Positions 1 through 56,785 of a DNA stretch of 64,000 bases are shown here, piece after piece. The notes beneath the pieces are model-generated. The model did not search any database. It saw only the letters and a list, made by a program, of their open reading frames with translations, and was not told the DNA's origin. Position 1 is the first letter of the stretch, and the number at the start of each line of letters is the position of its first letter. Source of the stretch: a virus (Duplodnaviria; Heunggongvirae; Uroviricota; Caudoviricetes); the IMG/VR virus record IMGVR_UViG_3300020050_007388, positions 15,730 to 79,729 of that record; one strand, given 5' to 3'. A program made the translations under genes and the position numbers.

Positions 1-290
1 AGATGGATGAAAACATTGGTGGTTATGGTTATGGTTTATTAGGTATTAACAGTTCAACAGGTAATGGTGCAGCTAATGTAATGACAGATAGTCAAGGTAG
101 ACAGATATTGGTTCCTGCTGTAGGTCAACCCAATAAGTTTGTTTATAACTCTACTGATGCTGCAATGAAAGATCGAGTTGCTAAAGGTATTTTATCTACA
201 ACTCCTGTGGAAGTAACAGAACGTAAAGTTAATCGTAGTGGGTCATCCACTTCAAAAACTGAAATTACAAAAACTTCAAAATCTCAATAA
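1..290 (+). CDS. 3' end of an upstream gene (partial; C-terminal 95 aa visible), probably virion structural
   Basis: ORF 3..290 runs to the window edge. Its stop TAA overlaps the ATG of the next gene (TAATG at 288-292), typical of a coupled structural operon. Confidence 0.4.
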   Translation, partial: MDENIGGYGYGLLGINSSTGNGAANVMTDSQGRQILVPAVGQPNKFVYNSTDAAMKDRVAKGILSTTPVEVTERKVNRSGSSTSKTEITKTSKSQ

Positions 291-3200
291 TGGGAAAATA
301 TAGATTAGACAATCCAGCAAACACACCCTTAGATCCTTTTGCATTTGAGAAACAATTTGCTCAACCTAATCTTAACAATCCTTCACCTTTTTCTGGAGTA
401 GCAGGTTCTTTAGAAGTTGTTGCTCCAGATAGGGTGGATGATGGTTATGGTACAATGGGTAATTCTGGTTATGCCGTGCAAGTTATTAATGAAGCAAAAG
501 CTAGAAATCAAGGATCAGGTGAACTTATAGCTAAGGGTTTAGGTAATGTAGTAAAAACTATTGGTATAGAGATTGGTAAAACTCCAGGTTATCTTGGAGG
601 AGTAGTAGGTGCAATTGGAAATGAGGTTTTAGGAGATGGTAAACAATCTATGAGTATGATTGTAGATAATGGTTGGGTAAATGCTTTTGAAAGTTTAGAT
701 CAAGCTACAAAAGAAATGATGCCCATTTACATATCTCAACAAGTTCAGGAAGGTAATCTATGGGATAAAATGGGATCTGGTGCATGGTGGGCTTCCACTG
801 GTGCAGATGGAGCAGGATTTATGTTAGCTATGTTTGCACCTGGAGCTGTAGCCAAGGCTTTGAAGGTTGGTTCTGGTATTGCTAGAGTTGGTGAAGGTCT
901 AGCTAATGTAGCTCCTAAATTAGGTAAGTGGGCAACCGGTAAAGGATTGTTGGAATCAGTTGGAGACAGTTTTGCTTATACACAAAAGTTTGCTAGAAAT
1001 GCAGATGGTTATGCTTCAACGGTTCTTAATACAACTATCGAATCTTCTGCTGAAGCTGCTAATACTTTTGATAATTTAAAAAGTAAATATATAGCTGAAG
1101 GTTTATCAGAAGATCAAGCCAGTCAGAAAGCTGGTGAAGGTGCTGCTGCTGTATTCAAAGGTAATATGGCACTCTTAGCAGTATCTAATTACTTAGATGA
1201 AATGTGGATATGGAAAACAATTGGATCTGCAGGTTCTAAAGAAGCTGCTCAATCTGTGTTAAACAAAGTAATTAAAGATGGAGTAATAGATACTGAAGCA
1301 CTTAAGAATGTAGCAAAAGAATTTACAAGAGGTTCAGTCCTTAAAAAGGTTGGACAAAACATTGGTAAAAATATTTTAAAAGAAGGTTTCTATGAGGAAG
1401 GTTCACAAACTACTTTACAACAAAATATTGAAGAAGAAGGATCTAAAGGTTTCTTAGGTAACTTGGTTAATATTGGGGCATCTTATTTTGATGACTTTGC
1501 TAATAATACTGAGTTACACGAATCCATATTTCTTGGTGGACTTTTAGGAGGTAGTGCTTCTATAATTGGAACTGTTCAAGAAAACAACGCACTTAAAGCT
1601 GCACTAACTGGATCTAAAGGTAGAACTGCTGATAACTTCTGGACCAAATATGGTATCTTACCACAAACTAGTCCACAGAAAGGTTTAATTAATTTGGTTA
1701 ATGAAAATCACATTAAGCAATTTAGATCTTATAAAGACTTTCTGGAACCTGATGGTAATGGCTCATTTGTTTTGAACGAACAGAAATTAGCTGATGCTCA
1801 ATTAGAGCAAGTAGATAATCTACGAACTAACATTCTTTATGATATTTCTGTTGCAGAAGGTGATAAGTTGGGTCAAGAAATATATGGTCAATACTTAGCA
1901 GCCAATTATGCTCAGTCATTTTTAGGTCAAGAAGGTGGACAAGAGATATTTAATCAACATGTTCAAGATCAAGTTTTACCAGCTTGGAGAAAAAGGTTTG
2001 AAGATTCATTTGGTAGACCTGCAACTTCTAAAGAGGAATCAGATTACACAGCTAGTTTTAAACAATCTGGAGAAAGAGTTTTTAAAGCACATAACACAGC
2101 TTCAGAAACTAATTATCCCGAAAGATATTACAAAGAGAATAATCCTGATTATGCAGATTTCAGAAATGAATACTTCCATAATAAGTTCGAGACGTTAGTT
2201 ACCCTGGATGCTTTAAAAGAAAGAAGATCTCAAGTCAATAAAGATTTGATGGATGCAGGAGTTACCATTATAGATCTTGAAGATTTAAACACCATTAAGG
2301 ATCCAGTTAAGAAACAGTTAGCTCAACAAATTAAAAACGAGTTAGATCAAATTGATAAATACGAAGAATTATTAAATATACAGTATCCTAAATTCTTTTC
2401 CAAAGCTGGAGTTAAGGAAATGTATGAAAAGTTTAAAGCTCGTAAGAATAGATTTGAAGAACTATCGAAAGAAGCTGCACAAGAAAATCAAGAACTCAAG
2501 CAGGAAGTTGACTTTTTACCTGCAGCTAACCAAGCTGAAATTGATAGATTGATTAATGAGTCTAACTCTAATAATACCTCAATTCCACTTAAAGGGTCTA
2601 ATGGTAAAAACTATTCCTTAGTTAAGGATGAAACTACTGGTGAGAATAAGGTGTTTGATGAAAATGGTGAAGAAGTTACAACTAAACTATCTGATCTCAA
2701 ATTATCTGTCAATGATGTTTCTAAAGAGGACTTTGATTCATTCAAAGAAACTTCAGAAGCATCTGATGAAGTTCTTCAGAGAATTGCTGAAAAGTTAATT
2801 AATGGTGAACCTCTTTCAGATAATGAAAAGTTAATTGCTCAAACTGAAAAAGCTAAACTTCAAGATTTATTTAATAAAGAGAAAGCTAAAATTGCAGAAA
2901 GATTAGCTAAACAAGAAGCTGTTTCTACTTCAGTTGAAGATGATTCAATAGATGCTGATGAATCAATATCTCAAGTATCTGAAAAGAAAGGTGTTAATTT
3001 ATATCCATCTACTGGTAGGAATTTACAACAAGATTTGACAGAAATTAAACCTGGAGTATTTGTAGAAAAGATGACAGATAAACCTAGTCAAAAGTTATGG
3101 TTTGAAACTCTAGATCAAATTAAGAACCCTCAAGATTATACTGTTCAAGTTGTAAGAAAGGACGATAGATCCAATATGGATTTGTTTAACCAAATTGATA

Positions 3201-4852
3201 GAGATAGTAATGAGAATTCTAAGGTAGATGATCTATATGTTGTTCTTTATAAAAATGGTAAACCTGTAACTAAAGATGGTAACTATATTTTTACTGGACT
3301 TTGGAGACCTAATACACTTTACCCAGTTAAAGATGGTAAACCAAGAGATTTCATGTTGGCTGAAAAATCTATTTTAGATAACTTCTTATTTGATGTTAGA
3401 TTACCAAAACTTAAGTTAGGTAAGTTAACTAAAAATGATAAAGAAGTACTCACACAAAATGGGGTTACAGATTTCTCGGAACAAGGTATAATGACAGCAG
3501 CATTCTTTCATGCTAAAAAAGAATATCAAGAATGGTATCAATCTCTACAAGAGAATCCTGGTCAACTACAAGTTGCTGGTATTACTAAAGGTCATGCTGT
3601 TAAAGGTTACACTTCTAAAGATAAGTCTTCTAAATATTGGGGATCTCCATTTAATATCCCAGGTTTAAAACTAAGACCTAATCCAAAGTTAAACTCTGCG
3701 GATTTAGTTGGTGGTAAATTTGAAATGTCAATTGATGGAACTATTAAGGTTGGAGATGAAACTTACACTATCTCACAAGGTGATGTGGTTATTGTAGATG
3801 ACCAAAATAATGTTCATCCAATGAAAGCTAGGAATATAAATGAGGATGAAGTTAAGACTATCTTGTATCTATTAAGTTTAAGAACTGGAAACCAACCTAC
3901 TGAAACTTTTAAAATTAAACCTCCTAATGGAATCAGGTTTGGAAATACTGTTGTAAAGGACGTTCCCATATTCTTTAATGAATCTACTAAACGTAGACAA
4001 ACTAGAGCTAATTTAATTGAAACATTAATTTCATTTGGATCAAAGAATGGTGGTAAAGGTGAGATTTACTTTAATCAACAATCTGTGAATGATGGTAAGC
4101 CTGAATTAGTATGGACAGATTTTGAAGGCAATACTAAAAACATATCTGTTTCTCTCATTGAGAATGCTGTACAGAATAATGACTTCAGTCAGATTGATGA
4201 TTTAGTTTTATTTTTGCAGCAGAAAAAGTTTAATGTAAATGAACATCTATTGAGCAATCCTACATTTGTAAAACCTCAGTTAGTTTATAAAAGAGATCAG
4301 AATGGGAAACAGGTTCCTGAACTAGAATGGAATGAAGATCAATCTTATTATGAAGTTTTACTTGGTGATGTTCTAACTACTACTACACTTGATCTTCCAG
4401 GTTACCCATCTAGGGTTCAAAGAAATATGTGGTTTAATAAAGAGCCTTTATCTCAAGATGTTAAAATAGATGAAGTTTCAAATACTACAGGCTTAGAAAA
4501 CTTAGGTTCTGTTAATAGTGAAAAGGCTATTATGAAAGCAGATGTCGAGAGTAAAGGTGAGTTTAAAATAAATCTTACAGGTGCTTCAAAAGAGCAGTCC
4601 GATAAAGCCTGGAAAGATGCTAATGAACTAGTAAGCGAAGAAGATTATGAACTAGTTCTTATTGGATCTACTAACATTCTCACATTATCTAAAAAGCTTA
4701 AAATCTCTGCAAAAGAAAAACTTGCTGAAAAAATTAGAAATAGAAAAAATTCTTTAGACAGTTTTAAAGAAGATATGGATAAAATTCTTACAACTTCAGA
4801 TCTATTAAAGATGAAGATTCAAAATGGAGAAATCATTCAGAAATGCAAATAA
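290..4852 (+). CDS. giant virion-associated protein (1520 aa), unknown function; Gly-rich N-terminus and long charged coiled-coil-like central part
   Basis: Uninterrupted 4.5-kb ORF in an AT-rich genome. Start overlaps the previous stop (TAATG). First of three contiguous giant ORFs. No catalytic motif recognised. Confidence 0.7.
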   Translation: MGKYRLDNPANTPLDPFAFEKQFAQPNLNNPSPFSGVAGSLEVVAPDRVDDGYGTMGNSGYAVQVINEAKARNQGSGELIAKGLGNVVKTIGIEIGKTPGYLGGVVGAIGNEVLGDGKQSMSMIVDNGWVNAFESLDQATKEMMPIYISQQVQEGNLWDKMGSGAWWASTGADGAGFMLAMFAPGAVAKALKVGSGIARVGEGLANVAPKLGKWATGKGLLESVGDSFAYTQKFARNADGYASTVLNTTIESSAEAANTFDNLKSKYIAEGLSEDQASQKAGEGAAAVFKGNMALLAVSNYLDEMWIWKTIGSAGSKEAAQSVLNKVIKDGVIDTEALKNVAKEFTRGSVLKKVGQNIGKNILKEGFYEEGSQTTLQQNIEEEGSKGFLGNLVNIGASYFDDFANNTELHESIFLGGLLGGSASIIGTVQENNALKAALTGSKGRTADNFWTKYGILPQTSPQKGLINLVNENHIKQFRSYKDFLEPDGNGSFVLNEQKLADAQLEQVDNLRTNILYDISVAEGDKLGQEIYGQYLAANYAQSFLGQEGGQEIFNQHVQDQVLPAWRKRFEDSFGRPATSKEESDYTASFKQSGERVFKAHNTASETNYPERYYKENNPDYADFRNEYFHNKFETLVTLDALKERRSQVNKDLMDAGVTIIDLEDLNTIKDPVKKQLAQQIKNELDQIDKYEELLNIQYPKFFSKAGVKEMYEKFKARKNRFEELSKEAAQENQELKQEVDFLPAANQAEIDRLINESNSNNTSIPLKGSNGKNYSLVKDETTGENKVFDENGEEVTTKLSDLKLSVNDVSKEDFDSFKETSEASDEVLQRIAEKLINGEPLSDNEKLIAQTEKAKLQDLFNKEKAKIAERLAKQEAVSTSVEDDSIDADESISQVSEKKGVNLYPSTGRNLQQDLTEIKPGVFVEKMTDKPSQKLWFETLDQIKNPQDYTVQVVRKDDRSNMDLFNQIDRDSNENSKVDDLYVVLYKNGKPVTKDGNYIFTGLWRPNTLYPVKDGKPRDFMLAEKSILDNFLFDVRLPKLKLGKLTKNDKEVLTQNGVTDFSEQGIMTAAFFHAKKEYQEWYQSLQENPGQLQVAGITKGHAVKGYTSKDKSSKYWGSPFNIPGLKLRPNPKLNSADLVGGKFEMSIDGTIKVGDETYTISQGDVVIVDDQNNVHPMKARNINEDEVKTILYLLSLRTGNQPTETFKIKPPNGIRFGNTVVKDVPIFFNESTKRRQTRANLIETLISFGSKNGGKGEIYFNQQSVNDGKPELVWTDFEGNTKNISVSLIENAVQNNDFSQIDDLVLFLQQKKFNVNEHLLSNPTFVKPQLVYKRDQNGKQVPELEWNEDQSYYEVLLGDVLTTTTLDLPGYPSRVQRNMWFNKEPLSQDVKIDEVSNTTGLENLGSVNSEKAIMKADVESKGEFKINLTGASKEQSDKAWKDANELVSEEDYELVLIGSTNILTLSKKLKISAKEKLAEKIRNRKNSLDSFKEDMDKILTTSDLLKMKIQNGEIIQKCK

Positions 4853-4858: not shown

Positions 4859-7800
4859 ATGGCAGATTGTACTTTTGTATATAAAGGGAAATCATACTCT
4901 AAAGATCGGATTACTCGACTTTTAGTAGATGAACTTCCAGTAAGAAGTCAACAAGAAGGAATCAACTTCTTGAAAGAATTTTTAGGAATGACTGATGATG
5001 AAATCATAATCATTAAAGGTTTAATTGATGGAAAATCAATTGGTAGGTTTAAATCTGATGGTAAAATATTACTGTCAGATTTAGCCGAAACTGGAGTTGC
5101 TTATCATGAAGCATTCCATAGAGTCTGGAGAATGTTTTTAACTAATGAAGAAAGACTTCAAGCAATTAAAGAAGTAAAAGCTAGAAAGAATATTCAATTA
5201 ACCATTGATGGCTACAGAGAAGTTTATCCAAAGCTAAGTGAAAATGAATTGATTGAAGAAATTTTAGCTGATGAATTTTCAGACTTTAAGATGAATGAAG
5301 ATTATAAGACCGAACTTCCAATTAAAACCTTTTTCCAAAGATTGTGGAATTTCTTGAAAAAATTAGTTGGTCTTAAGACTTCTGATGTTCAATTGATTTA
5401 TGATAAGATTTTAAGTAAAACTTATAAGACTGCTCCTCAATCTGTACAACAGTATTTAAAAGATGCAGATAAAGTTTTAATTCAAGGTCATGAGTTTTCT
5501 GTTGAAGAAAAGAATGAGTTAATTCAAGTAATGACTCAACAGTTTGTTAAAGCAATGTTGGATCTTAACGGTAACATAGATGTATTCTTAAATTCACCAA
5601 CTGTTAAAATGAAACAATTGGTTGAGGACTATGTTATAACAAATATGTTATCTGACATGATGGATGCTGGAGTAAATGAAGATTTAGTTTCTGCAGTATT
5701 TCAAGATGTTGAAGCTTGGGTTGAGTCAAATAAATTTGAAGATTCCATATTTGTAAACGGAATGGTTCAGAACTTAAAGTTGATAGGATTAGTCATTAAA
5801 GATGATTCAGAAGATTTATCTGAAGGAGCTTTAGAAGGTGAAGAAAAACAAGCTAGAGAATATGGAGCTTCCATTGAGATTGACCCTAAATCTAAAATGG
5901 GTAAGAAGATTAAACTCTTATTGTCCAGTTTTTCAGATCCTAATGAAAAGACTACAAACTTTGGATTCCCAAAACCTGTAGGTTGGACCAAAGCTTTTGT
6001 TCAAATAGCCACTAAGATGGCAGGAATACCCACGTCTGTTTTTAGAGAAGAATTAAAAGCTCTAAATGTTCCATATATTCAAGACTTAATTGAAATCTTG
6101 GAAAAAGATGTAGTCTTTGGAAATGAATTTATCTCAACAATGGCCATGACTGAAAATAAATTCATGAAGATGAATTATAAGAATGGTGATATTTATTTCT
6201 TTGATGCTAACTCAGGAACTCGTAGAGACAAATTGGTTGGAGAATGGAAAAACAACTTAATCCGTAAAGTAGAGAATTGGGATGAATGGAAAGCAGAAGC
6301 TGCTGAATTAGAAAGAAAGAAGGGATCTGTTTCTGATGAAGAAATTATGGATCACTTTGGTTTAGTCCTTAATTTCCAAATTCCAGATCTACGTTCAGAC
6401 TTGAACTTCATTTTAAGTTTAGTAGATAAATATAAAGGAGATAAACCAGATCCTTCCAGGTTGTTTGAGCAATTAGGTATCAAAGGTTATGTCAATACTT
6501 TAGCAGAAAAACAATCTGCTTATGAAGATCATGTTGACTTGATGGTAATGTTGGGTTCTAAAAAGTTATATACGCTTGGATTAAATACTCAACAAACTCA
6601 AGTTGTAAATGGAGTTAAGTATGCTCAATCTAAGTTTACTCCAGATATGACTACAAGTCAAAAGATAGAGTTACTTAAAGAATTTGCACCATTTCAGGTC
6701 TCAGAGTTTAATATAACGAAATTAGAATCTGGAGAATACTTGATTCATAATAAATGGTTGGAAAAGATTCTAGAAGGTGAAAAACTGGAGTTGGTAATTC
6801 CTTATCAAGTAGATACTCAATCTGGAGAAGATTCTGAAATTGCTAAATTGGAAGAATCTGACTTAATGGCTTTACACTTAAATGGAGCTTTACAAGGAGT
6901 AAACATTAGCATGAAACATGCTGATCGTGGAACTTTCTTTGCTTATACATTTGGTAATAATAAACCTCTTTATACTAAGCAGGGTAATGTTGCAGATACT
7001 CTTAAGATCTTAGAAAGAAATATTATCGAACAGATTGAATTGGAAGCTAAGTTTTATAACAATATGTTGGAACGAAATATTCCAGTTCAATATATTGGTG
7101 AGCAAGACATTGATAATAAAAATGTTGATAAGCAAAAGTTTGGAGCATTTTCTAAAGATATTATTGGTGTAGATGATTTTAAAACATTATTAGCTACTGG
7201 TGAAGTTCCTAACAAATCTAAGATAACAGAGTTTGTAAGTAAAGCTTTTGAAGATTACAAAAAAAGTGTTGAAGCTTATGGATTGTTAGGAGAGTTCTCA
7301 GAACCCGTTTATAAAGATGGTAAAAGAACTGGAGAAATCAAGAAACTAAAAGGTGTTAATAATAACTTAAGGTTTCAATATGCCAATCTTGATTTGCTTT
7401 TAGCTTCAGCATTTACCAATGAAGTCTCTAGTCATATTTTTGAAGTAAGATTCTTTTCTGGAGACGTAAGGTCTTTTAAGTCTGGTACTGACTTATTCAA
7501 ACGTTTAGCTCCACAAAGTTCTACTGGTAATTTAACAGTTACAGATAATGTAGCTAATGAGGATGTTAGAGTAAAGTTAGATCAAGATTTTGAAATACTT
7601 AATCCAGTTACTGGAGAAACTGTAATAGTTAACCCAAGTAAAAATATTGGTGAAGGAAAAGATAAATACTTTAGGGCTGTAACTGGAGCTGAAAGATCTA
7701 ATTATAAAAGTCACTTACTAGAACCTGCATTAAGTTCTACTGGTAAACCTTTAGTATCTAAACTAACTGGAAATAATGAGTCTAAGTTATTCATGATGTT

Positions 7801-10800
7801 TGAGGATGGTTTTATTAAAGACTTTCCAAATACTTCGTTAGATGAACTTAAGAAAACATATCTTCCAAAGTTTAAATTATATGAAGAAAAGTATGCTGAT
7901 GTAAATGAAAATGATGGTATCAGCTATATGGTTTTACCAGCATTTAAAAACTTTATGTTAAAGCAGGGCAAGTGGACTGAGGGAATGGAAACTGTTTATC
8001 AAACAGAAATGAAAATTGCTCAGTTAACTAACATCAACGACATTGCCAATATAGAAATTACGGTTAAAGGAGTTACCTTTAAACCATTTGAGATTAAATC
8101 TGAAGAAGTAAATGGTAAGAAAGTAGATGGTTGGAAAAAAAGAGTTGTAAATGGTAAGCTAATTTCTTTAGAAGCTGTTCACACACTTAAAACACAATTT
8201 GCAGGTTACTCAACACCAGAGGAATATTTTGACGAAGCTAAGTCAGAATTAGAATATTGGTTTAATACTATCTTTAAAACTTCTCAACATTTACTTTTAC
8301 CCTCTGCTATTTTAGGTACTAACTTACAACTGATGAACTTTAGTTTGCTCAGTAATGGTATAGATATATATCATATGGGTTCAGCTAATAAAGTTGGTGG
8401 GGTTGATGCTAAATTGGCAGCCAAAAATATAACTTCAAACAATGATGATATTCGGAATACTCGTAAGTTTCTTCCTGATATTCAGGAACGAGGATTAGAC
8501 TTCTATAATAAAGAAGGATTCTTCAATCATGAAGCTCTAACAGAAAACTTAGATATATTATCTTACCTATCTGCTTGGGATAATCAGAAGAACCAGGTGC
8601 AAATTGGTAACAAAGTTAAAGATGAAATTAAAGGCTCTACTCAGAGTTTAAAGATTTTACTTTCTAACTTGGTTGTCAATTCTACAGAAAGATTTGTAGG
8701 TGCCAAGCAATTGATAGATGATTACAAAGAAGTAGTTAGTTTAATGGTCCAAGGTAATCATACTAACTTACTAAATAAGATTGGATTTAATTATGATAGT
8801 AATGAATTTGAAAGTTTAGATAAACTTAAGAAAGCTGTTCTAGAATCCAGTCAAATGCAATCTGCACCAGAGAATACTCGTAATGCAGTAGAGAATTTCT
8901 TTAATGATCCTAGTTTAGGTATAGAAGCTGTACCTATGAAGAATAAGATTGAAAATGTTCTTTATGCTCTTATTACAAATGGTATTATCAGTTTTGATAG
9001 ACCTGGATCAAGTTATCCACAAGCTGCTGTTACTGGTTATGAGAAATTAGGATCTAGAACATTTAATGAAGATGGAACTCAAAGAACTAATCAAGATACT
9101 TTGAAGTTTTACAATCCTATTTTTGATGAGGATGGAAATGTAACTGAGATGGAAGCTGCAGAAGTTATAATGCCACTCCCTGATTATTGGATTAAACCAT
9201 TATTAAGATGGGCTAAAACAAATAACTTGGTTAAGGCTTTGGAAAAACTAAATTCAGATATTCCAAATAGACCTGAATTATTTCAATTCAAAGGTCTACG
9301 CATTCCTAACCAGCAGTTGAGTTCTAATGACTTCTTTCAAGTAAAAAGATTTACTTTACCAACGATGCAGAATTATATTATAATTCCGTCAGAGATGGTT
9401 ACAAAAACTGGTGGAGATTTTGACATTGATTCCATCAAATTATATTGGGCTTCAGATACAGAATCTAAGATTTTCAGTAAAATAACTGAAGAAGAAGTTC
9501 AGGATAAATATGAGAATTATCTGGAAACCAGTGAAGATGAAAATCCTTTAACGTATGAAGAATTTAAAGCTTTTTACAATTCTACTTTAGACAGAGTTTT
9601 ATTGGAACAAGAAAAGAACTTACTTTTACATCCTAGAAATGCTCATCACTTACTAATGCCTTTAACTGATGAAATCTTTGTAAAAGATATTTACAATGAA
9701 TTGGTATCAGAAGGTTTAATTGAAGAACCTGCAAAGTCATTCTTTGGTGCTATGTTACCAACAACTAATGTAAAGAATGCAGTAATCTTTGTTAAAGGTA
9801 AATATGGTGTAGGTCCAGTAGCTTTAGGTATTACTAACTCAGCAACCAACCAAGCTGACACATTGTCAATATCTCAGAACTATGTAAATCAAGATAATGT
9901 AGCTAGGCCAACTAAACTTTTATTTGAAGGATTAGAAGAAACTTATACTCTAGATAATTATACTGACAATAAAGGAACTGTTATATCTGAAATCTTATCT
10001 CAGCTCTTAACTACTCAAGTGGATAATGTAAAGAATCCAACTGCAGTTCTTATGAACATTAATATGCAGACTTTGGGAGTTATGCTGTATTTGATTAGAA
10101 GAAAGGTTAATCCTAAATCTGTAGTTCTCCTTTTACAACAACCTTTAATTAAACAGTACTTAATTGCTCAAAGGCAGAATGAATCTCTATTCAACAAGAA
10201 TGCTGATTCAGTAAGTAATGCTAAAGGAAACCGTAAAGCAGAATTAAGTAAGAAGGATTTAATAGCTAAACTTTTGAGTGAGAATGGATATTCTGAAACA
10301 GAGTTAGTTGATCCATATTTAGTAATAGGATCTACTTCTGTAGAAACAGAAGGTCTTCAAGTATTTCGAGATGAATCGGGAAACCTTATTTATGATGAAT
10401 CCAACATCAATGTGGTTCTTACTGATAAACTCTGGAGTATGTCTGACAGAAATATGATGAGTGAGGCTAAAGCTAAATCACCTAATAAGCAACAACAGCT
10501 TCTTTATTTATCTTACTTTGTAGATGAACTTCAACCTCAAGCTAGAGCATTTTCTGATTTTCAACAAACTCAGAACTCAGATACTAAAGGGTTGAAGGAT
10601 AAACAAATGTTGGATGAATCAGATGTTATTTATGGAAGAACACGATTGTCTGGAATTATTGCAAGTTGGGATGTATCTAGATTAAATAATACTGGAGTTA
10701 TTTCTCCATTCTATCAATTTGGTAGAAAGTCTTATAGAATCTACGATAGGTTTTATTCTCTGTTAAGCTCTCCATTTGCTGGAGTTCTTACAGATTTTAA

Positions 10801-13800
10801 AAACAAAGCTGCTGCAATTGCTCCATCTGCTTCTAAAGATAGAGTAAGGCAAACTATTGAGAATGACTTTATATTATTCTTAGTTCACAATTACATCTTA
10901 ACTAAGGATGAGTTTAATAGGTTAATGAAAGGAGATGAAACTACTAAATCTGTAGCTCTCAGGGTTAAAGATTTAAAATTAGTTTTACCTTCCAATTTAG
11001 TACTTAAAGCATTCTTTCCAATGTTAAGTAACTCTATAGATCAGCTAGATAATAAAAGAGTTGATAACTTACGTTTATTTGAAAAGGAATTAAATTCTTT
11101 GGACAACAATGACTTGAGATTATCTTTGGAAGAAATTGCTGAAACTGATTTAGATCTTTACACAGATATTGTAAAACTGTTGATGTTCCAAACTGGATTA
11201 AACATTAGTCCGTTTAACTATAGATCTGTGATACCAGTTGGTTTAGATCAAAATAGAACTGAGTATAATGAGTATCAATACTTGTATGCAGATATTCTTA
11301 AGAATGCAGTTAAAACAATGGAATCTAAAGTTAGAAATCAAAAAGAAGCTGAATTAATCTTCAAAGATTTTCAAACTTTATTTGCTGCTAATAATCCACA
11401 ATTCTTAAGAAAGAATTTCTATCATCCACTTTACCCATATCCTTTAGCTAGATCTTGGGATAGAAAGACTCAGATGTTTACTTTACACCCAAATGATGGT
11501 AAAGGTTTACCAAATACAAATATTACTCAACCTACATTAGGTAATGCTTATATGAAGCAATATTTCCTATCTGGAAAGATTACCAATTCTAAGAATCCTA
11601 ATGTAGAAAAGGAAGCTTTAAATAAGACTTTTGAGCAGACTGTGTTTAATGAGGAAACTGAAGTTACTACAAATTCTCCACAAGCTGAAGTTCTAAGTAA
11701 ATATGAACTATTTCCTGGAGTATTTGCTAACCAAGGTCAAACAGAAGCTTTAGATAAATTAGTTACTTTCCTAAGCTCTAATGAGCAAGAGTTTACTTTA
11801 ATAGGTAGAGGTGGTACTGGTAAGACAACTATTATTAAAAAGATTCTAGAAACTCAAAAGGGTAAATCTATTCTGGGTATTACAGTAGCTCACAAAGCCA
11901 AAAAGATTTTAGGTAGATCAATTGGTAAAGATAAAGTGAAAACTGTAGCCTCAGCTCTAGCTATTAAGTTAGATGAATCAACAGGTGATTTTGTTCCAGA
12001 CCAATTTGCTAGAGAAAAAGGTAGGGTTCCAATTAAGTATGCGGATATTATTATTGTAGATGAAGCTTCTATGATTTCTCCAAAAATTTATGCTGAGATA
12101 ATGTCTTTAAAAGCTAGAGGTGCTAAGGTTATATTTATGGGAGACAATGCTCAATTGCCACCAGTTGGTGAAGATGTGGATAGTCCTGTATTTGGAATTA
12201 AAAACCAATACACGTTGGTTGAAAAAATGAGACAAGCTAAAACAAGTCCTATTATTAATGTAGGATCTATTGTGGCTGACAACATTGAATCTAAAGAGGT
12301 TAAATTAGTTGCTATTCCAGATTCAGAAAGAAAGAATAAATTTGACAACATTAGTCGAAGTCAAATTATATTTACTTCTAATGAAGATGAAGCTTTAGAG
12401 TCCTTGGTGTCAGATTTCTTAGGCTCTGGAGGAATAAACCCGGATACCGTTAAAGCAGTAACTTTCAATAATGAGAAACATAATGCTCCACAAAGTGTTA
12501 AAAATCTTAACGATAAAATTAGGATTAAGCTTTGGGGAGATCAAGTTAAAAATCAATTTAATGAAGGGGAACTATTAACTGCATATGATAGTTATTCTAG
12601 AGATATTGGGGCAAGTGAAGATGAAGTACCAGTACATAACTCGGATGACTTTATTGTAACTGCAATAGAAACAAGAAAATCTGAAAAGATTAAAGTTTTT
12701 GCAGTTAGTCAAAAAATGGGCCGAAGAGAATTTACTACTACTTATGATGTAATTTATCTTAATCTATTAGACAGTGAAGGTAAAGAGGTTCCTGGTGGAA
12801 TTCCTGTTATAGCTAATTCTAGCAAGGAAAAGTATAACGAAGATATGGCCCAACTATGGCAATCAGATAAACAATTAGCATTTGTACTTAAAAATCAATT
12901 TGCTAATTTGCAGTATGGTTATGCTATTACAAGTCATAAAGCTCAAGGTTCTACATACACTAACACATATGTCTTTGAAGATAATATCTTAGGTAGAACA
13001 AATGCTGGAGATGCTATTACAAAGAATAAGAGTTTATATGTTGCTGTATCTAGACCTACTGATAAGTTAGTTATGATCTCTGAAAGGAACGAAGGATCAA
13101 CAGATCCAGTTACTCAACCTAAAGTTGAAAAAACTATTGATTCTGTTGTTAAAAACTTTGTTAAGCAAGATATATTAAAGGTATCTCCTATACAAGCTGC
13201 TGATAAAAAAGCGGTTGTCAAAGCAAGTATTTCTAATAAATTTATTGGTTTCGCAGAAGGTATTCCTGGAAGTTCGACAGAAGAATATAGAAAGCAAACT
13301 GGAACACTTGCTAATACTGGAGATTATAATTCTAAGGATATTATATTTGTATCAGTACCAGGAAATAGAGGTTCTGAAACTACTAGAAAAGTTCAACAAG
13401 ATAGAACTATTAAAGAGGCTATTAAAGCATTGGAATCTGGAGCAACAATCATTGTTGATAATAAAGCTTATATAGATAGTAGTTCTTATAATTCTGGAGA
13501 GAAAAGATTAGCTCAGAATTTAGAAGCTAAAGGGTTCATATATTCAGAAATCACTGTTGATAATCAACTATTAGGTGTATGGAATAAACAAGCTGTGGAA
13601 GACTGGAGTGATTTTCAATCAATCTTTGAATTGGATAAATCTCAATCTAACTATTCTCCATCTCTTAAAATGTATGAAGGATTTATTAACTTAAATCAAT
13701 TATATATAGGAGATGAAATTCTACCATTTATTGGTGAATCAGAATATTATAGGTACTTAGTCCCAATGTTGTTAAATATGAATCCTAAGGCTCAAACAAT

Positions 13801-14476
13801 GTTTACTGATAATCTCAATAAAGCTGCTGTAGCTGAAGGTATTCGTCAAGATCTTCCAATAGACTATCTGCTAGATGTTAGTAACTTAGGTTTAAAACGT
13901 TCTGTTAGAGGAGCATCATTTAATACTATGAATACAAATTTCATAAAAGATAGAGCTAAGACTAAGACTGTTGTTCATGAATTGGTTCACTTAACTCTTC
14001 AAAAAGAATACGAAAAGAACGGTGAATTTAAACAGAAGATAGATGAACTATGGAGTTATTCTGATGATAGAGCTAAATCTGATAGTTATGGATTTACAAG
14101 TCCTAAAGAGTTTTTAGCTGAAGCTTTAAGTAATCCTGATTTTATGCAAGAGTTAAATGAGATTCAATACAAAGAAGAAACTATCTGGTCATATTTAATG
14201 ACTTTAGTATCTGACTTTATTAATAATTTGTTGAATGTAGAACTAAAATCAGATTCAGTATTAGCTGAAGTTGTAAGACTTTCAGAACAAGTATTAAACA
14301 ATAACGTCAAGGAAATGTCTAAAGATAAACCAATTGAAATATCTTCAGTAAAAAGTGAAATCTTAGACAATTGGGATAATTATTTCCCAAGATATTCTTG
14401 GATGAATGATACACAAAAACAAATGACAGCCAAACTCGTAGAGGAAGGTAAAATCAATTTAACTTGTAAAATATGA
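4859..14476 (+). CDS. giant multidomain 'polyvalent'-type protein (3205 aa): N-terminal HExxH zincin-like motif, central RecD/Pif1-like SF1 helicase domain, second HExxH near the C-terminus
   Basis: HEAFH at aa ~83 (nt ~5105). Walker A GRGGTGKTT (nt ~11806), Walker B IIIVDEASM, GDNAQLPPVG and ITSHKAQGSTY (nt ~12930), the characteristic RecD/Pif1/TraA (AAA_30 + UvrD_C_2) motif set in the right order. VVHELVHL at nt ~13967. Stop overlaps the next start (ATGA at 14473-14476). Confidence 0.8.
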   Translation: MADCTFVYKGKSYSKDRITRLLVDELPVRSQQEGINFLKEFLGMTDDEIIIIKGLIDGKSIGRFKSDGKILLSDLAETGVAYHEAFHRVWRMFLTNEERLQAIKEVKARKNIQLTIDGYREVYPKLSENELIEEILADEFSDFKMNEDYKTELPIKTFFQRLWNFLKKLVGLKTSDVQLIYDKILSKTYKTAPQSVQQYLKDADKVLIQGHEFSVEEKNELIQVMTQQFVKAMLDLNGNIDVFLNSPTVKMKQLVEDYVITNMLSDMMDAGVNEDLVSAVFQDVEAWVESNKFEDSIFVNGMVQNLKLIGLVIKDDSEDLSEGALEGEEKQAREYGASIEIDPKSKMGKKIKLLLSSFSDPNEKTTNFGFPKPVGWTKAFVQIATKMAGIPTSVFREELKALNVPYIQDLIEILEKDVVFGNEFISTMAMTENKFMKMNYKNGDIYFFDANSGTRRDKLVGEWKNNLIRKVENWDEWKAEAAELERKKGSVSDEEIMDHFGLVLNFQIPDLRSDLNFILSLVDKYKGDKPDPSRLFEQLGIKGYVNTLAEKQSAYEDHVDLMVMLGSKKLYTLGLNTQQTQVVNGVKYAQSKFTPDMTTSQKIELLKEFAPFQVSEFNITKLESGEYLIHNKWLEKILEGEKLELVIPYQVDTQSGEDSEIAKLEESDLMALHLNGALQGVNISMKHADRGTFFAYTFGNNKPLYTKQGNVADTLKILERNIIEQIELEAKFYNNMLERNIPVQYIGEQDIDNKNVDKQKFGAFSKDIIGVDDFKTLLATGEVPNKSKITEFVSKAFEDYKKSVEAYGLLGEFSEPVYKDGKRTGEIKKLKGVNNNLRFQYANLDLLLASAFTNEVSSHIFEVRFFSGDVRSFKSGTDLFKRLAPQSSTGNLTVTDNVANEDVRVKLDQDFEILNPVTGETVIVNPSKNIGEGKDKYFRAVTGAERSNYKSHLLEPALSSTGKPLVSKLTGNNESKLFMMFEDGFIKDFPNTSLDELKKTYLPKFKLYEEKYADVNENDGISYMVLPAFKNFMLKQGKWTEGMETVYQTEMKIAQLTNINDIANIEITVKGVTFKPFEIKSEEVNGKKVDGWKKRVVNGKLISLEAVHTLKTQFAGYSTPEEYFDEAKSELEYWFNTIFKTSQHLLLPSAILGTNLQLMNFSLLSNGIDIYHMGSANKVGGVDAKLAAKNITSNNDDIRNTRKFLPDIQERGLDFYNKEGFFNHEALTENLDILSYLSAWDNQKNQVQIGNKVKDEIKGSTQSLKILLSNLVVNSTERFVGAKQLIDDYKEVVSLMVQGNHTNLLNKIGFNYDSNEFESLDKLKKAVLESSQMQSAPENTRNAVENFFNDPSLGIEAVPMKNKIENVLYALITNGIISFDRPGSSYPQAAVTGYEKLGSRTFNEDGTQRTNQDTLKFYNPIFDEDGNVTEMEAAEVIMPLPDYWIKPLLRWAKTNNLVKALEKLNSDIPNRPELFQFKGLRIPNQQLSSNDFFQVKRFTLPTMQNYIIIPSEMVTKTGGDFDIDSIKLYWASDTESKIFSKITEEEVQDKYENYLETSEDENPLTYEEFKAFYNSTLDRVLLEQEKNLLLHPRNAHHLLMPLTDEIFVKDIYNELVSEGLIEEPAKSFFGAMLPTTNVKNAVIFVKGKYGVGPVALGITNSATNQADTLSISQNYVNQDNVARPTKLLFEGLEETYTLDNYTDNKGTVISEILSQLLTTQVDNVKNPTAVLMNINMQTLGVMLYLIRRKVNPKSVVLLLQQPLIKQYLIAQRQNESLFNKNADSVSNAKGNRKAELSKKDLIAKLLSENGYSETELVDPYLVIGSTSVETEGLQVFRDESGNLIYDESNINVVLTDKLWSMSDRNMMSEAKAKSPNKQQQLLYLSYFVDELQPQARAFSDFQQTQNSDTKGLKDKQMLDESDVIYGRTRLSGIIASWDVSRLNNTGVISPFYQFGRKSYRIYDRFYSLLSSPFAGVLTDFKNKAAAIAPSASKDRVRQTIENDFILFLVHNYILTKDEFNRLMKGDETTKSVALRVKDLKLVLPSNLVLKAFFPMLSNSIDQLDNKRVDNLRLFEKELNSLDNNDLRLSLEEIAETDLDLYTDIVKLLMFQTGLNISPFNYRSVIPVGLDQNRTEYNEYQYLYADILKNAVKTMESKVRNQKEAELIFKDFQTLFAANNPQFLRKNFYHPLYPYPLARSWDRKTQMFTLHPNDGKGLPNTNITQPTLGNAYMKQYFLSGKITNSKNPNVEKEALNKTFEQTVFNEETEVTTNSPQAEVLSKYELFPGVFANQGQTEALDKLVTFLSSNEQEFTLIGRGGTGKTTIIKKILETQKGKSILGITVAHKAKKILGRSIGKDKVKTVASALAIKLDESTGDFVPDQFAREKGRVPIKYADIIIVDEASMISPKIYAEIMSLKARGAKVIFMGDNAQLPPVGEDVDSPVFGIKNQYTLVEKMRQAKTSPIINVGSIVADNIESKEVKLVAIPDSERKNKFDNISRSQIIFTSNEDEALESLVSDFLGSGGINPDTVKAVTFNNEKHNAPQSVKNLNDKIRIKLWGDQVKNQFNEGELLTAYDSYSRDIGASEDEVPVHNSDDFIVTAIETRKSEKIKVFAVSQKMGRREFTTTYDVIYLNLLDSEGKEVPGGIPVIANSSKEKYNEDMAQLWQSDKQLAFVLKNQFANLQYGYAITSHKAQGSTYTNTYVFEDNILGRTNAGDAITKNKSLYVAVSRPTDKLVMISERNEGSTDPVTQPKVEKTIDSVVKNFVKQDILKVSPIQAADKKAVVKASISNKFIGFAEGIPGSSTEEYRKQTGTLANTGDYNSKDIIFVSVPGNRGSETTRKVQQDRTIKEAIKALESGATIIVDNKAYIDSSSYNSGEKRLAQNLEAKGFIYSEITVDNQLLGVWNKQAVEDWSDFQSIFELDKSQSNYSPSLKMYEGFINLNQLYIGDEILPFIGESEYYRYLVPMLLNMNPKAQTMFTDNLNKAAVAEGIRQDLPIDYLLDVSNLGLKRSVRGASFNTMNTNFIKDRAKTKTVVHELVHLTLQKEYEKNGEFKQKIDELWSYSDDRAKSDSYGFTSPKEFLAEALSNPDFMQELNEIQYKEETIWSYLMTLVSDFINNLLNVELKSDSVLAEVVRLSEQVLNNNVKEMSKDKPIEISSVKSEILDNWDNYFPRYSWMNDTQKQMTAKLVEEGKINLTCKI

Positions 14477-17400
14477 ATTGTACAACACCAGATGATTTCA
14501 ACTCAGCAATTGAGTTTGGTAGAATTATTAATGAAACAAAGCCTAATCAAGCAGCTGAAGTAACCGTTACATTCCTGGATAATACGTCTGGGAATGTAAC
14601 TAAACTTGATAAATCATATCAAGCTATTGGTGGAACAGCTAAGATTAAGGAGAGTGTTACAGAGAAAGCTGGAAGATTAAAACCTTTTAGAGGTAAAGCT
14701 AATCCACTGTTGGATCAGCAGGCTGATCTTGGACAATATGTTCACGATGTATCAGAAATGATTACTCAAGATATTGTGAATGCAATTGGTGATAAATCTA
14801 ATGACTATGCACTAACTTATGTCAAGAACATAAATACCATTGACGAAGAAGGTTTAAAAAAAATAAATCAAATGTATGGAAAAACTTTAGATAATAAATC
14901 TAAAGTTAGAGTTTTGGAAGGAGTTAAAGAGAATTTGTTAATTATTTACCGTCAACAAAGAACCATTAACAAACTAACTGGAAAAGAAGGTAAAGTAACT
15001 ATCAGATTAAAACAAATAGTTATTGATCCAAAAAACGGAATTGGTGGAACCATAGACTTCTTAGCTATATTTTCAGATAATACTGCAGCTATCATAGATT
15101 ATAAAACCAAAATTGTTACATCAAGCAATCAAGATGCTTTTGGAAATATTATCAATATTGACAAAGTAATTTATCCTCAAGCTGTTGAAAAGTATAAACT
15201 ACAAACTGGTGAATATGGTAGGATCTTAAGAGAATCTTATGGAGTAAAATCTATTGCTAATATAACTATTATTCCAATTAAGATTAATGTTAAATTGGAT
15301 AAGAAGTTAGGTAAGTATGGAAACAAAATTGAGAACTTAGCTTTTCCTGGGCAAGATCCATTGTTAGAGAAAATCTTACCTTTTAGTAACTCAACCAGAT
15401 TTAAATCTTTAGATGAATTTATTCGAGCAATTGATGAGCGTATTCAAAAGTTGGAACAAAAAATTAAGTCTAATCCTAGTCAAAGAGAGGAACTTTCCAA
15501 AAGAATTAAAGAATTGAATAACGGAAGAAAAGATATTCTCATTAACCATAACATGGATACCATCCTAAATTACGGTAAGAGTTTGTCAGAGAAGGTTAAA
15601 AAAGGGGAAATGGGAGAATTAAGTGTTTCTGAATTACAAGATTTAATTCATGAAATGCAGCTGTTAGCCAGTATTGCAGAATCTACCTATGAATATCGTA
15701 AGAGTTTAAAAGGAACTACCAAAGAGAAAGATCTGGATGAAATAGAACAAAAAATTGGATTAATTACACGAGAATTAAAAGATAGAATTGAAGAACTAAA
15801 AGTAGTTTTATTTGAAGACAAGATTACCAAACTAATTGAGATTCACACGGGTTATAAAATAACAGATGATTTTGGAAATTACGTTCCATTTGCTCAAGAA
15901 GGTTATATGGGAAAATGGTTTTATCAGTTAAGTCAATATGATAATCCAATCTTTAAAACTTTAAGATCTATCTTAGATGACATTAATTACAAAGTAAGAC
16001 AAAAGACAGAAGCTGTAGTTGAAAATATTAAAGAAACGGAGGATAAAGTTTATACTTGGTTAAACAATACTGGTAGATCATTTGAGGATTTAATCACAAT
16101 TATGATTAATCCAAAAAATGATAACTTTTGGGGCAAGTATAGTTCTGAATACTTTGATAAAATTAATTCAGCAAAACCTGAAGAACTACATACCTTTTAT
16201 GAACCTTCAGAAACATATGAAGAATGGTATACTCAAGCTTTATTCAAAAAAGCTAATCAGTTAAAAGATGAAGGAGTTACAGGAGAAGAATTGAATAAGC
16301 TTATTAATAGTTGGGTTAGTCAAAATGATTTGTCTGTAGTGGATGGTGAAGCTGTACATCCTGAAGCTTGGGAACAAGCTAAAAGATTTAACAGGTTACA
16401 TCTAAAAGACAATCCAAAAGCTTATAATGAAAATTATAAATTTATCATGTCTGTTCCTGAACTGAAAGCGTACTATGAAATGTTTGAAACTTATAATAAA
16501 GAGTTTAGAGGTATGTTAGGTGTTGATTATAATCAATTACCTAATAACTTCTTACCTAATATTAGAAAGTCAATGACAGAAAGAGTAGCTGAACATGGTG
16601 CTGGAGGTCTACTAACTGGAGTCCAAGATTACTTGAAGGATTTTTCAATTAGGGAAGAAGATAGATCAGCAGATTCTACATACAACTCTAATTCTCAAAT
16701 TCCAATCTTTTTCTTAAATCCGTTTAGAGCTGAAGATAAAAGTTTAATGATTGGTGAAAAGTCATACCAGTTTGGTAGATCTTTAGCAATCTTTGCTAAA
16801 ATGGCTTATAATTATGAAGCTTCTACAGAACAGGAAGCTAATATCTTAGCACTACAAGAATTCTTAAGTACTGAAGCTGAACAACTAACTCAATCTAGAG
16901 GTAGAAACCTGATTGATAAAATGGGTAATAATTTGACAGAGAAGTTACAAGCTACAGAATTACCAGAGATATTTCAATCTTTTGTTGATATGTACTTGTA
17001 TAGAATTAATGTTAAATCTATTATTGGTGATAAGTCAGGTAAGGCTGAAAAAATGTTATTAAAAGCCAAAGAATATTTTACTTTAAAAGTCTTAGGTTTT
17101 AACGTTATTGCAGGTTTAGGTTCTCTAGCTACTGCTAAGATCAACTCTATGATTGAAGCTAACAAAGGTATTATTTTTAACAAAGATAATTACACAGAAG
17201 CTATGAAAGCTTCATGGTCTGAAAGAGATAAGTTTTTAGCTATCAACGCATACTTTGATCCAATGTCACATCGCTTAAATAATCCTGCTATTGGAGGAGA
17301 AAAAAAATATGGTGAAAGACAATATGGAGATCCTACCATGAGAGGTTGGGTAAACAAATATGTTAATGCTAGAATGTTGATGAACACATTTTCTATTGGT

Positions 17401-18474: not shown

Positions 18475-19140
18475 ATGGATACTTCAGGAGTTTATAGAAT
18501 TAAAAACTTAGTCAACAATAAGATCTATATTGGTTCCAGTGTAACTGTAGAAAAGAGATTGTTAAAACATAAAAATGAGTTACTTAAAAATATTCATTGC
18601 AACAATCATCTTCAGAATGCATATAATAAATACGGGTTAGAAAATTTTATATTTGAAAAACTTGTAGATTGTCCCAGGATTATTAAAGAACTTCGTGAGA
18701 TGGAACAATATTTAAAAGATTTTTATCAAGCTGAATATAACATTCGAGATAAAGTTGATTCTAATGAAGGTATGAAATTCTCAGACGAACATAAAGCTAA
18801 AATTAGTGCTGCTCATAAAGGTAAGACTTTATCAGAAGAAACTAAAGAAAAGCTGAGGATCATTAATACTGGTAAGAAAGCTTCAGAAGAAACACTGTTG
18901 AAGAGAGGTCTTATTTTCAAAGGTAGAAAACAAAATCCTGAATGGATAGAAAAAAGAGCTAGTTCTAAAAGAATTCCTATTTATCAATTTGATAAAGCAT
19001 CAGGTTTTATAAAAGAATTTCGATCCATTGCTGATGCAAGTAGAGAGTTGGGTATTCAACACATTAATATTATTAAGTGTGCAAAAAGTCAAAGAAACCA
19101 TGCAGGAGGATTTATTTGGAAATATGAGAACGTACAATAA
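18475..19140 (+). CDS. GIY-YIG homing endonuclease (I-TevI/Seg-like) with NUMOD-type C-terminal repeats
   Basis: N-terminus GVYRIKNLVNNKIYIGSS ... RLLKH ... NAYNKYGLENFIFE matches the GIY-YIG catalytic core. Repeated K/H-rich segments (KISAAHKGKTLSEETKEKLRI) follow. ATG is immediately after the giant ORF's stop. Confidence 0.8.
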   Translation: MDTSGVYRIKNLVNNKIYIGSSVTVEKRLLKHKNELLKNIHCNNHLQNAYNKYGLENFIFEKLVDCPRIIKELREMEQYLKDFYQAEYNIRDKVDSNEGMKFSDEHKAKISAAHKGKTLSEETKEKLRIINTGKKASEETLLKRGLIFKGRKQNPEWIEKRASSKRIPIYQFDKASGFIKEFRSIADASRELGIQHINIIKCAKSQRNHAGGFIWKYENVQ

Positions 19141-19156
19141 AAGGTTAAATTTTTTA

Positions 19157-19198
19157 AAGGGATGTCTAGCTGTAATGGCTAGCATCCCTTTTATTTTA
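19157..19198. terminator. bidirectional rho-independent terminator between convergent plus and minus gene blocks
   Basis: GGGATG(T)CTAGC-tgtaatg-GCTAGCATCCC hairpin. A-run on the 5' side (tttttaaa) and T-run on the 3' side (ttttatttt). Sits between the stop of the + strand HE (19140) and the stop of the minus ORF (19196). Confidence 0.7.
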
Positions 19199-20115: not shown

Positions 20116-20128
20116 CAGGATCTCTCAT

Positions 20129-54761: not shown

Positions 54762-54873
54762 AAAAACTAATTAGTTACAATTTATAGTACCCCTGACAGG
54801 GGATGATCCTGCACGGACTTCACAGTCCAAAAGGGTTTAAACCTTTCTCGGCTTCCAGTTACGACACAGGGGC

Positions 54874-55710: not shown

Positions 55711-55860
55711 TATGATTTACGAGTTTTAAACAATTTAGAAATAAATCAAGTACTTTATCGACTAACAATACTTATTTATCGACGAACTACATAAAATCAT
55801 CGACATAAATATTTTATAAGTGTGACATGTATAGCAGTTCCATCACCGGACCAAAAACAT

Positions 55861-56647: not shown

Positions 56648-56697
56648 TGTTAACTTTGTTTAAATTATTTAAATTTGTCAATAATACAACTGACTTT

Positions 56698-56772: not shown

Positions 56773-56785
56773 TACACATCTTTTA

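Follow-up and report, generated by a model that had tools for sequence, protein, structure and literature searches.

A probable virion RNA polymerase polyprotein with an embedded Dda/RecD-type helicase in an uncultured crAss-like phage

We analysed a stretch of 64,000 nucleotides (nt) from an uncultured tailed phage (IMG/VR record IMGVR_UViG_3300020050_007388, positions 15,730 to 79,729; hereafter the window), in which the plus-strand block consists mainly of three very long, translationally coupled open reading frames (ORF1, ORF2 and ORF3, Table 1). ORF2, one frame of 3205 amino acids (aa) from ATG to TGA, is very likely the virion-packaged DNA-dependent RNA polymerase (vRNAP) polyprotein of a crAss-like phage. 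An initial annotation, made from the sequence alone, had described a single uninterrupted ORF, located in a coupled trio of giant ORFs and coding for two HExxH motifs that flank a complete superfamily 1B (SF1B) helicase. All of this was borne out: the stop codon of ORF1 is separated from the ATG of ORF2 by 6 nt (TAA TAA AAT ATG), ORF2 and ORF3 overlap in an ATGA, and the motifs are HEAFH (aa 83-87) and HELVH (aa 3040-3044). The same annotation took the protein for a member of no recognised family and for a candidate effector in anti-restriction or DNA protection. Since it had missed the polymerase, it misjudged both the novelty and the main function of the protein, which the central polymerase places in early transcription.

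To define the family, ORF2 was aligned with 20 metagenomic homologues (21 sequences). The family profile had a sole match in the PDB, the virion DNA-dependent RNA polymerase gp66 of Cellulophaga phage phi14:2 (6vr4_A, E = 8e-32, chain residues 1132-1764). A phmmer search with ORF2 alone found only helicases in the PDB and, therefore, detection of the polymerase needed the family profile. BLASTP aligned the ORF2 segments 848-932, 992-1074, 1137-1526 and 1709-1766 with gp66 residues 859-936, 941-1016, 1024-1367 and 1599-1656, respectively; one segment puts the DFDID motif of ORF2 on the catalytic 1361-DFDID-1365 of gp66 and another one spans the trigger-loop region. With the domain landmarks of gp66 taken from the preprint (10.1101/2020.03.07.982082), profile and BLASTP together revealed collinear homology over both barrels, the Connector, the bridge helix and the trigger loop. 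In the 21-sequence alignment D1520, D1522, I1523 and D1524 are invariant and F1521 is nearly invariant. The other conserved groups are H83-E84-A85-F86-H87 with E133/E134, which are invariant, and a cysteine at each end, which is nearly invariant. The core that is conserved in all ORF2 homologues comprises aa 1-2250.

A tblastn search of 50,697 phage records with aa 1100-1780 retrieved 37 records, all of them Crassvirales or unclassified crAss-type gut contigs, including the "putative RNAP catalytic subunit" of crAss002 and phi14:2 g066. When ORF2 was compared with phage genomes by tblastn, the best distant matches were again all crAss-like phages and no close relative was found. Megablast of the ORF2 gene against the 50,697 records gave no match; all deposited phages are distant relatives of this lineage at most. 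The closest relatives of ORF2 are encoded on uncultured contigs of 105-112 kb, with a maximum of 68% identity in the ORF2 protein. Since catalytic motif, homology, gene order (see below) and distribution agree, ORF2 belongs to the crAss-like vRNAP family, and by profile, BLASTP and tblastn the family is a recognised one. The exact sequence of ORF2 is present in a collection of 15 billion proteins, where its 90% cluster is represented by a fragment of 348 aa; homology searches thus miss ORF2, and giant proteins can be hidden in this way.

In many relatives the polymerase gene is broken exactly within the catalytic motif (..GGD | FDID..), as seen at the ends of the proteins P0018-P0050 and of cr108_1 gp054 (L002). 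On the contig of P0024 (L010:14545-15572) an insert of ~1 kb in the motif encodes a LAGLIDADG endonuclease and resembles a group I intron. The ORF2 of the window has no such interruption, and an Rfam scan found no intron in the window.

The neighbours of ORF2 point in the same direction. In phi14:2 the order is g067-g066-g065, followed by a converging replication module, and the order ORF1-ORF2-ORF3 is the same: ORF1 aa 70-442 matched gp67 in BLASTP (30% identity, E = 4e-33) and the ORF3 family matched gp65 713-1409 in hhalign (probability 96.5%, E = 8.6e-10). In the relatives, a muzzle gene (PF25731 crAss_MUZ) and two smaller cargo genes precede the trio. The family hidden Markov models (HMMs) of ORF1 and ORF3 are too narrow to classify most divergent giants. 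From the synteny of the trio with phi14:2, the muzzle context in relatives and a replication gene set on the minus strand it follows that the window is, judged by its sequence, part of a crAss-like genome from an environmental lineage with a low GC content (31%). The proteins gp65, gp66 and gp67 were detected in phi14:2 virions by tandem mass spectrometry (database record notes), and gp47, gp49 and gp50 were found in virions of PhicrAss001 (PMC10172136). Since homologues were detected in virions by mass spectrometry, ORF2 is, by analogy, very probably packaged and injected. Phi14:2 gp66 is injected and transcribes early genes; it transcribes single-stranded DNA (ssDNA) and denatured DNA efficiently, native phage DNA weakly and double-stranded (ds) M13 DNA not at all (10.1101/2020.03.07.982082).

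Downstream of the polymerase, aa 2266-2780 are, by profile matches and motifs, a genuine SF1B helicase of the Dda/RecD type. Pfam models matched over aa 2291-2740 (AAA_30, E = 3e-20, 73.2 bits at a cutoff of 27; AAA_19, 60.3 bits; PIF1, 28.5 bits at a cutoff of 25.9), and UvrD_C_2 was slightly below its cutoff (26.9 versus 27.4 bits). PHROG 325 'Dda-like helicase' matched aa 2267-2777 with E = 1.5e-68, and the best PDB sequence matches include T4 Dda (3upu) and RecD2 (3e1s). The helicase motifs I, II, III, V and VI are intact (GRGGTGKTT at 2316-2324, DEASM at 2401, GDNAQL at 2428, TSHKAQG at 2691 and YVAVSR at 2727). A HMMER scan with the helicase gave 13,688 relatives, and 149 of the best 150 representatives were examined. 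Among these 149, 59 are located within proteins of at least 2000 aa, 37 of which have a DFDxD motif, and 53 are free-standing (<700 aa); standalone relatives of 450-530 aa occur. With 59 of the 149 best representatives in giant proteins, the fusion is widespread, and it is already present in the RefSeq crAss genomes cr118_1 and cr50_1. No discussion of a helicase-polymerase fusion was found in the literature searched.

The helicase is located in a slot between the polymerase core and the C-terminal zincin-like domain (window 11609-14278, aa ~2250-3140). Comparison with the relatives P0001-P0053 revealed that this slot is combinatorially shuffled, in proteins whose cores are 52-68% identical. 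It holds a helicase (HEL), NADAR, DUF7831, cpYpsA SLOG, a GHKL ATPase (HATPase), an extra zincin, module A (a recurring unit of ~115 aa, no Pfam match), module X, or none of these. In ORF2 the slot is HEL-X; it is HEL-A in P0001, A in P0002, NADAR in P0003, HEL-NADAR-extra zincin in P0004, A-HEL-NADAR in P0005, HEL-DUF7831-NADAR in P0007, X in P0022, cpYpsA SLOG in P0017 and HATPase in P0041, and it is empty in P0009, P0015 and P0016. The extra, paralogous zincin of P0004 gave only a sub-threshold SprT-like match (19.4 bits). Module X is ~60% identical in P0022, where it is located directly behind the polymerase without a helicase, and has a weak match (30%) in P0001; no relatives beyond these two were detected, and neither Foldseek nor Pfam gave a significant match. 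The combination HEL-X is unique among the homologues retrieved, whereas such fusions as a kind are common. The tail module that follows the C-terminal zincin-like domain is retained in the zincin-less relatives P0030, P0031, P0036 and P0042. NADAR hydrolases reverse DNA ADP-ribosylation by DarT, and orphan phage copies neutralise DarTG1 (PMC11543638, PMC11825919). Since NADAR counters DarTG1, the slot of relatives holds at least one established counter-defence activity.

The two HExxH motifs of ORF2 exceed chance: with 27 histidines, 0.018 motifs are expected, and two or more were found in a fraction of 5e-5 of 20,000 shuffles. H83, E84, H87 and E133/E134 do not vary in the sets of 21 and 34 sequences. 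The AlphaFold model of the N-terminal domain (mean predicted local distance difference test score (pLDDT) 77.5) has three strands, a helix with the HExxH and a Glu-bearing helix, as in the zincin fold, and the domain resembles the zincins of the antirestriction protein ArdC and of lethal factor. At the other end, H3040, E3041, H3044 and E3084 are invariant in 16 of 16 aligned tail sequences, as is a downstream EFLAE, and ORF2 2961-3117 matched the HEIMH region of phi14:2 gp65 (residues 186-334) in BLASTP with E = 4e-8. This region of gp65 is described in the phi14:2 literature as a zincin-like protease that may activate the polymerase. The model of the C-terminal region has a pLDDT of 58.7, its Foldseek matches to Rossmann methyltransferases were not significant (E = 0.05 or worse), and its profile found nothing in the PDB even at E = 10. 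The initial annotation had called for domain searches of both ends; Pfam and PHROG gave no match for aa 1-380 and aa 2747-3205, and thus no curated peptidase model supports the zincins.

A further feature of the trio is the distribution of its cysteines. The three proteins contain 4 Cys in 6058 aa, whereas ~105 are expected from the 36 other ORFs of the window (1.73% Cys; Poisson P ~1e-39), and all four are located within 4 residues of the ORF1/ORF2 or the ORF2/ORF3 junction. The C-terminal Cys is found in 63 of 67 ORF1 homologues and is the sole Cys in 62. Nearly all full-length ORF2 homologues have exactly two Cys, one per end, and nearly all that start at the same point have a Cys at position 3-7. 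In ORF3 homologues, a Cys at position 3-5 is present in 47 of 47 and is the only one in 43. The termini in phi14:2 are ..TIC in gp67, MAC.. and ..ECK in gp66 and MSC.. in gp65; in PhicrAss001 they are ..RCNS in gp47, MSKRC.. and ..ICGANTLYEL in gp50 and MAKKC.. in gp49, even though gp47 is encoded on the opposite strand. The pattern is also present in Suoliviridae genomes, in cr108_1 (Steigviridae) and in crAss002 (Intestiviridae); the loci in which it was traced are L004, L008, L010, L011, L001, L002, L005 and L006.

The cysteines follow the break points and not the domains: the pair stays at the break although both zincins shift between proteins. The HEAFH zincin closes the first protein in PhicrAss001 and opens the second one here, and the gp65-type zincin-like domain opens the third protein in phi14:2 and closes the second one here. 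In ORF1-ORF2 fusions both junction cysteines and the tail motif are gone, and in the ORF2-ORF3 fusion crAss002 gp33 the C-terminal Cys is gone. We had predicted beforehand that a full fusion would be free of Cys and, indeed, there is no Cys in P0215, a protein of 5801 aa in which DFDxD (at 2812) is followed by a helicase (4013-4483) and by a C-terminus that resembles ORF3 (hhalign 98.5%). The simplest reading of the pattern would be a head-to-tail disulfide chain that replaces the peptide bond. Split inteins were rejected as an explanation, because the cysteines are within 0-2 residues of the C-terminus or 3-5 of the N-terminus and no intein-sized segments are present; a lipobox was rejected because there is no signal peptide. 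Inter-subunit disulfides are known in the tail and portal proteins of the PhicrAss001 virion (PMC10172136). No mention of the terminal-cysteine pattern was found in the literature searched, with two key papers outside that search.

We put forward, as a proposal with a chance a little short of even, that the trio could be a split polyprotein linked by disulfides between the ORF1 C-terminus and ORF2 Cys4 and between ORF2 Cys3203 and ORF3 Cys3, and that the C-terminal slot of the polymerase could be a bay in which injected effectors (helicase, NADAR, SLOG, GHKL ATPase) are exchanged. The disulfides would form in the virion and be reduced in the cytoplasm; a chain of ~6,000 residues could thus thread the tail in a fixed order and then fall apart on reduction. 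If this model is true, the cysteine pattern predicts how a cargo protein of ~0.7 MDa is ordered, ejected and released.

ORF2 shares with phi14:2 gp66 (PDB 6VR4) the DFDID motif and collinearity over the end of the first double-psi beta-barrel, the Connector, the second barrel and the trigger-loop region, and the two phages share the same three-gene block in the same orientation, with ORF1 equivalent to gp67 and the C-terminal zincin-like domain of ORF2 plus ORF3 equivalent to gp65, as well as the same terminal cysteines. In contrast, gp66 has 2180 aa and neither an HExxH nor a helicase, while ORF2 adds an active-looking N-terminal zincin, the helicase and module X. PhicrAss001 gp47/gp50/gp49, cr118_1 gp14 and cr50_1 gp059 resemble the trio as giant RNA polymerase-associated cargo with the HEAFH zincin, DFD(I/V)D and the junction cysteines. 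For one of them, cr118_1 gp14, which has 4946 aa and bears the annotation 'exonuclease V / DNA helicase', the match covers aa 30-2744 of ORF2 and takes in the helicase. Their break points are different: the HEAFH of PhicrAss001 lies at the end of gp47, and cr118_1 and cr50_1 have one fused protein in place of ORF1 and ORF2. Identity is 22-25%. Unlike these gut Bacteroides phages, the ORF2 phage belongs to an environmental lineage. The helicase has all conserved motifs of T4 Dda and Deinococcus RecD2, which are among its best PDB sequence matches, but those are free-standing enzymes of 440-740 aa made in the cell, whereas the ORF2 helicase is embedded in a putative virion protein.

Several points weigh against ORF2 being a vRNAP polyprotein of the kind described. 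Its identity to gp66 is just ~25%, counted segment by segment; no Pfam or PHROG model matches the polymerase or either HExxH region; packaging, RNA synthesis and proteolysis are all inferred; and the phage is uncultured. Furthermore, close relatives at 61-65% identity (P0002, P0008, P0009, P0015, P0016 and P0022) are without the helicase, as is phi14:2 gp66, and the helicase is therefore not essential for polymerase function.

The initial annotation had compared ORF2 with DarB of phage P1, which combines a DNA methyltransferase with a superfamily 2 (SF2) helicase and guards DNA against type I restriction. Like DarB, ORF2 is large, contains a helicase and is probably delivered by the virion; but no methyltransferase was found in Pfam and PHROG searches, the helicase is SF1B and not SF2, and the protein carries an RNA polymerase, and thus it is not a member. 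In the broader form of this idea, ORF2 would be a generic polyvalent counter-defence effector that counters restriction or protects DNA, has peptidase and helicase as its functional core and plays no part as a polymerase. The two conserved zincin-type motifs around the helicase, the resemblance of the N-terminal domain to ArdC and lethal factor, and the NADAR (proven anti-DarTG in phages, PMC11825919) next to the helicase in the slot of relatives would all suit such an effector. This is nevertheless very improbable, since the centre of ORF2, ~1,400 residues, shares homology with a polymerase whose RNA synthesis was proven by experiment, the catalytic motif is invariant, and the peptidase and helicase parts amount to less than one third of the protein. 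The polyvalent concept itself does fit: its starting point was a virion RNA polymerase to which zincin peptidases are fused (Iyer et al. 2017, PMC5512222, in which the words 'crAss' and 'Cellulophaga' are absent), and ORF2 combines several unrelated catalytic domains with zincin-like metallopeptidases in an architecture that varies among orthologues, its C-terminal third being the shuffled slot. Like the polyvalent proteins and among them the vRNAP of phage N4 with its fused zincin metallopeptidases, it would be a huge injected polypeptide with a transcription jump-start enzyme, zincins between modules and variable conflict-type domains; it differs in that the N4 enzyme is a T7-like single-subunit polymerase and not a two-barrel one, and that no curated model matches its zincins. 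What did not stand is anti-restriction as the main function; an anti-defence role is possible only for the payload part. Equally hard to credit is that ORF2 is never packaged and acts in the cell as a replication or transcription factory protein that merely resembles the crAss vRNAP. ORF2 does adjoin the replication module, but its place is at the end of the late/structural genes on the plus strand, where it shares orientation and translational coupling with cargo genes of the gp67 and gp65 kind. All characterised orthologues are virion components, and in these packaged proteins, too, internal cysteines are purged to an extreme degree while terminal ones are conserved.

If ORF2 is a vRNAP polyprotein, the question arises of what the helicase does. 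We lean, tentatively, towards a transcription co-factor that would unwind the entering duplex or strip proteins from it, so that a polymerase with a preference for ssDNA can initiate, in analogy to QDE-1 with QDE-3 and RPA. The QDE-1/QDE-3 analogy comes from the authors of the gp66 preprint, in which the enzyme worked on ssDNA and not on M13 dsDNA (10.1101/2020.03.07.982082). Besides, the helicase is delivered in the same polypeptide and thus at the same time and place, its clade is repeatedly fused to DFDxD giants (37 of the 59 giants mentioned above), and no second SF1 helicase was found in the 64-kb window. Against a co-factor speak the dispensability of the helicase in close relatives and phi14:2, its position in a shuffled slot beside conflict-type domains, and the zincins, which may cleave it off the polymerase. 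A little less probable, but still to be reckoned with, is that helicase and module X form an injected accessory effector for counter-defence or host takeover, like NADAR in relatives. It might, for example, clear host proteins or nucleases off the incoming DNA, serve as a decoy of the RecD kind or jump-start replication. The cassette-like presence and absence, the shuffling with NADAR, DUF7831, cpYpsA SLOG, HATPase and an extra zincin among cores that are otherwise 52-68% identical, the standalone relatives and the polyvalent-protein framework (PMC5512222) argue for this; however, no defence-related model matched in searches that did not include PADLOC, and module X has no tie to any function. 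We know of no Dda/RecD2-type helicase that has been shown to counter a defence system, although no search aimed at this was made, and this also speaks against an accessory effector. The role in opening or clearing the template was slightly preferred over the payload role because the eukaryotic cousin QDE-1 needs a helicase and RPA.

Taken as a vRNAP polyprotein, ORF2 would have the domain order junction Cys, HEAFH zincin, two-double-psi-beta-barrel polymerase, payload slot, HELVH zincin-like domain and tail with the second junction Cys. The scheme starts from the identities of the polymerase, helicase and gp65-type modules, the HExxH conservation, the gp67-gp66-gp65 synteny and the slot variability found here, and its remaining steps are carried over from phi14:2 and PhicrAss001. 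ORF2 would be made late and packed in the capsid alongside ORF1 and ORF3; it would be ejected together with the DNA and, once in the cell, would transcribe the early genes, i.e. the replication module on the minus strand. After delivery, the zincin domains may process or activate the polyprotein. The helicase would be a co-delivered accessory that most likely opens or clears the incoming duplex for the ssDNA-working polymerase, with counter-defence as the main alternative role. The vRNAP is a signature gene of crAss-like phages, and its presence mainly tells us that the window comes from a crAss-like genome. Of wider interest is how a polymerase that in vitro uses only ssDNA deals with an injected duplex, for which relatives with and without the helicase give matched pairs. 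Furthermore, the variability of the slot suggests that exchange of modules on an injected polymerase is a way in which crAss-like phages diversify counter-defence.

Table 1 Features of ORF2 and its flanking ORFs, with positions in the window; functional labels are predictions.
Feature	Position	Strand	Basis or remark
ORF1, 1520 aa, gp67 orthologue (putative virion cargo)	290..4852	+	BLASTP to phi14:2 gp67
ORF1, only Cys codon, penultimate residue	4844-4846	+	translation
ORF2, 3205 aa, probable virion RNA polymerase polyprotein	4859..14476	+	ORF translation; profile match to 6VR4
N-terminal zincin-like domain, aa 1-~200	4859..5458	+	HEAFH at 5105-5119; E133/E134 at 5255-5260
ORF2 Cys4 codon, N-terminal junction Cys	4868-4870	+	one of two Cys in ORF2
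Two-barrel RNA polymerase core, aa ~848-2250	7400..11608	+	BLASTP and profile; collinear with phi14:2 gp66
Catalytic DFDID, aa 1520-1524	9416-9430	+	aligned with gp66 1361-DFDID-1365
SF1B Dda/RecD2-type helicase cassette, aa 2266-2780	11654..13198	+	Pfam, PHROG and PDB matches; motifs intact
Helicase Walker A	11804-11830	+	GRGGTGKTT, aa 2316-2324
Module X, small alpha/beta domain, aa 2786-2915	13214..13603	+	shared with P0022; model pLDDT ~55-89
C-terminal zincin-like domain, gp65 type, aa 2916-3140	13604..14278	+	HELVH at 13976-13990; BLASTP to gp65
C-terminal tail module, aa 3141-3205, ends ..EEGKINLTCKI	14279..14473	+	kept in zincin-less relatives
ORF2 Cys3203 codon	14465-14467	+	nearly invariant
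ORF3, 1333 aa, C-terminal half homologous to gp65	14473..18474	+	hhalign; N-terminal PD-(D/E)xK-like motif
ORF3, only Cys codon, Cys3	14479-14481	+	Cys3 invariant

Pfam and PHROG found nothing for ORF1 or ORF3; weak matches to Cas2 (ORF1) and PDDEXK_1 (ORF3) were below the cutoff. The part of ORF1 that is conserved with gp67, aa 70-440 (window 290-1700), is rich in Gly and Ala and hydrophobic (GLGNVVKTIGIEIGKTPGYLGGVVGAIG...), and it may act on membranes, as would be expected of the protein that leaves the tail first. In ORF3, aa 160-215 contain an invariant D195 ... D209-x-K211 (GGTIDFLAIF ... AAIIDYKT), and H91 and Q162 are invariant as well. The site is PD-(D/E)xK nuclease-like by its invariant residues, which back the sub-cutoff PDDEXK_1 match (a match that 7 homologues do not give), and would be located in a virion cargo protein.

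The plus-strand block consists of the trio and a homing-endonuclease ORF (GIY-YIG with NUMOD1/NUMOD3, 18475-19140, plus strand), which begins at the base immediately following the ORF3 stop codon, at the end of the block. All other ORFs of at least 150 aa are located on the minus strand of the window, where the genes form a replication set: ligase, primase, AAA ATPase, DnaB-like helicase, family A polymerase and RNA ligase. The GC skew and the AT skew flip sign at 19000-20500 (~19-20 kb), where the two blocks meet, and this marks a convergent transcription boundary. Four tRNA genes (Leu-TAA, Phe-GAA, Met-CAT and Arg-TCT) are located among the minus-strand genes (54787-58365), three of which are reported at the Rfam gathering threshold. 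An ORF of 403 aa that starts with TTG (32927-34138, minus strand) is located between the genes for the AAA ATPase and the DnaB-like helicase; it matched PHROG 1314 'HNH endonuclease' with E = 2e-55.

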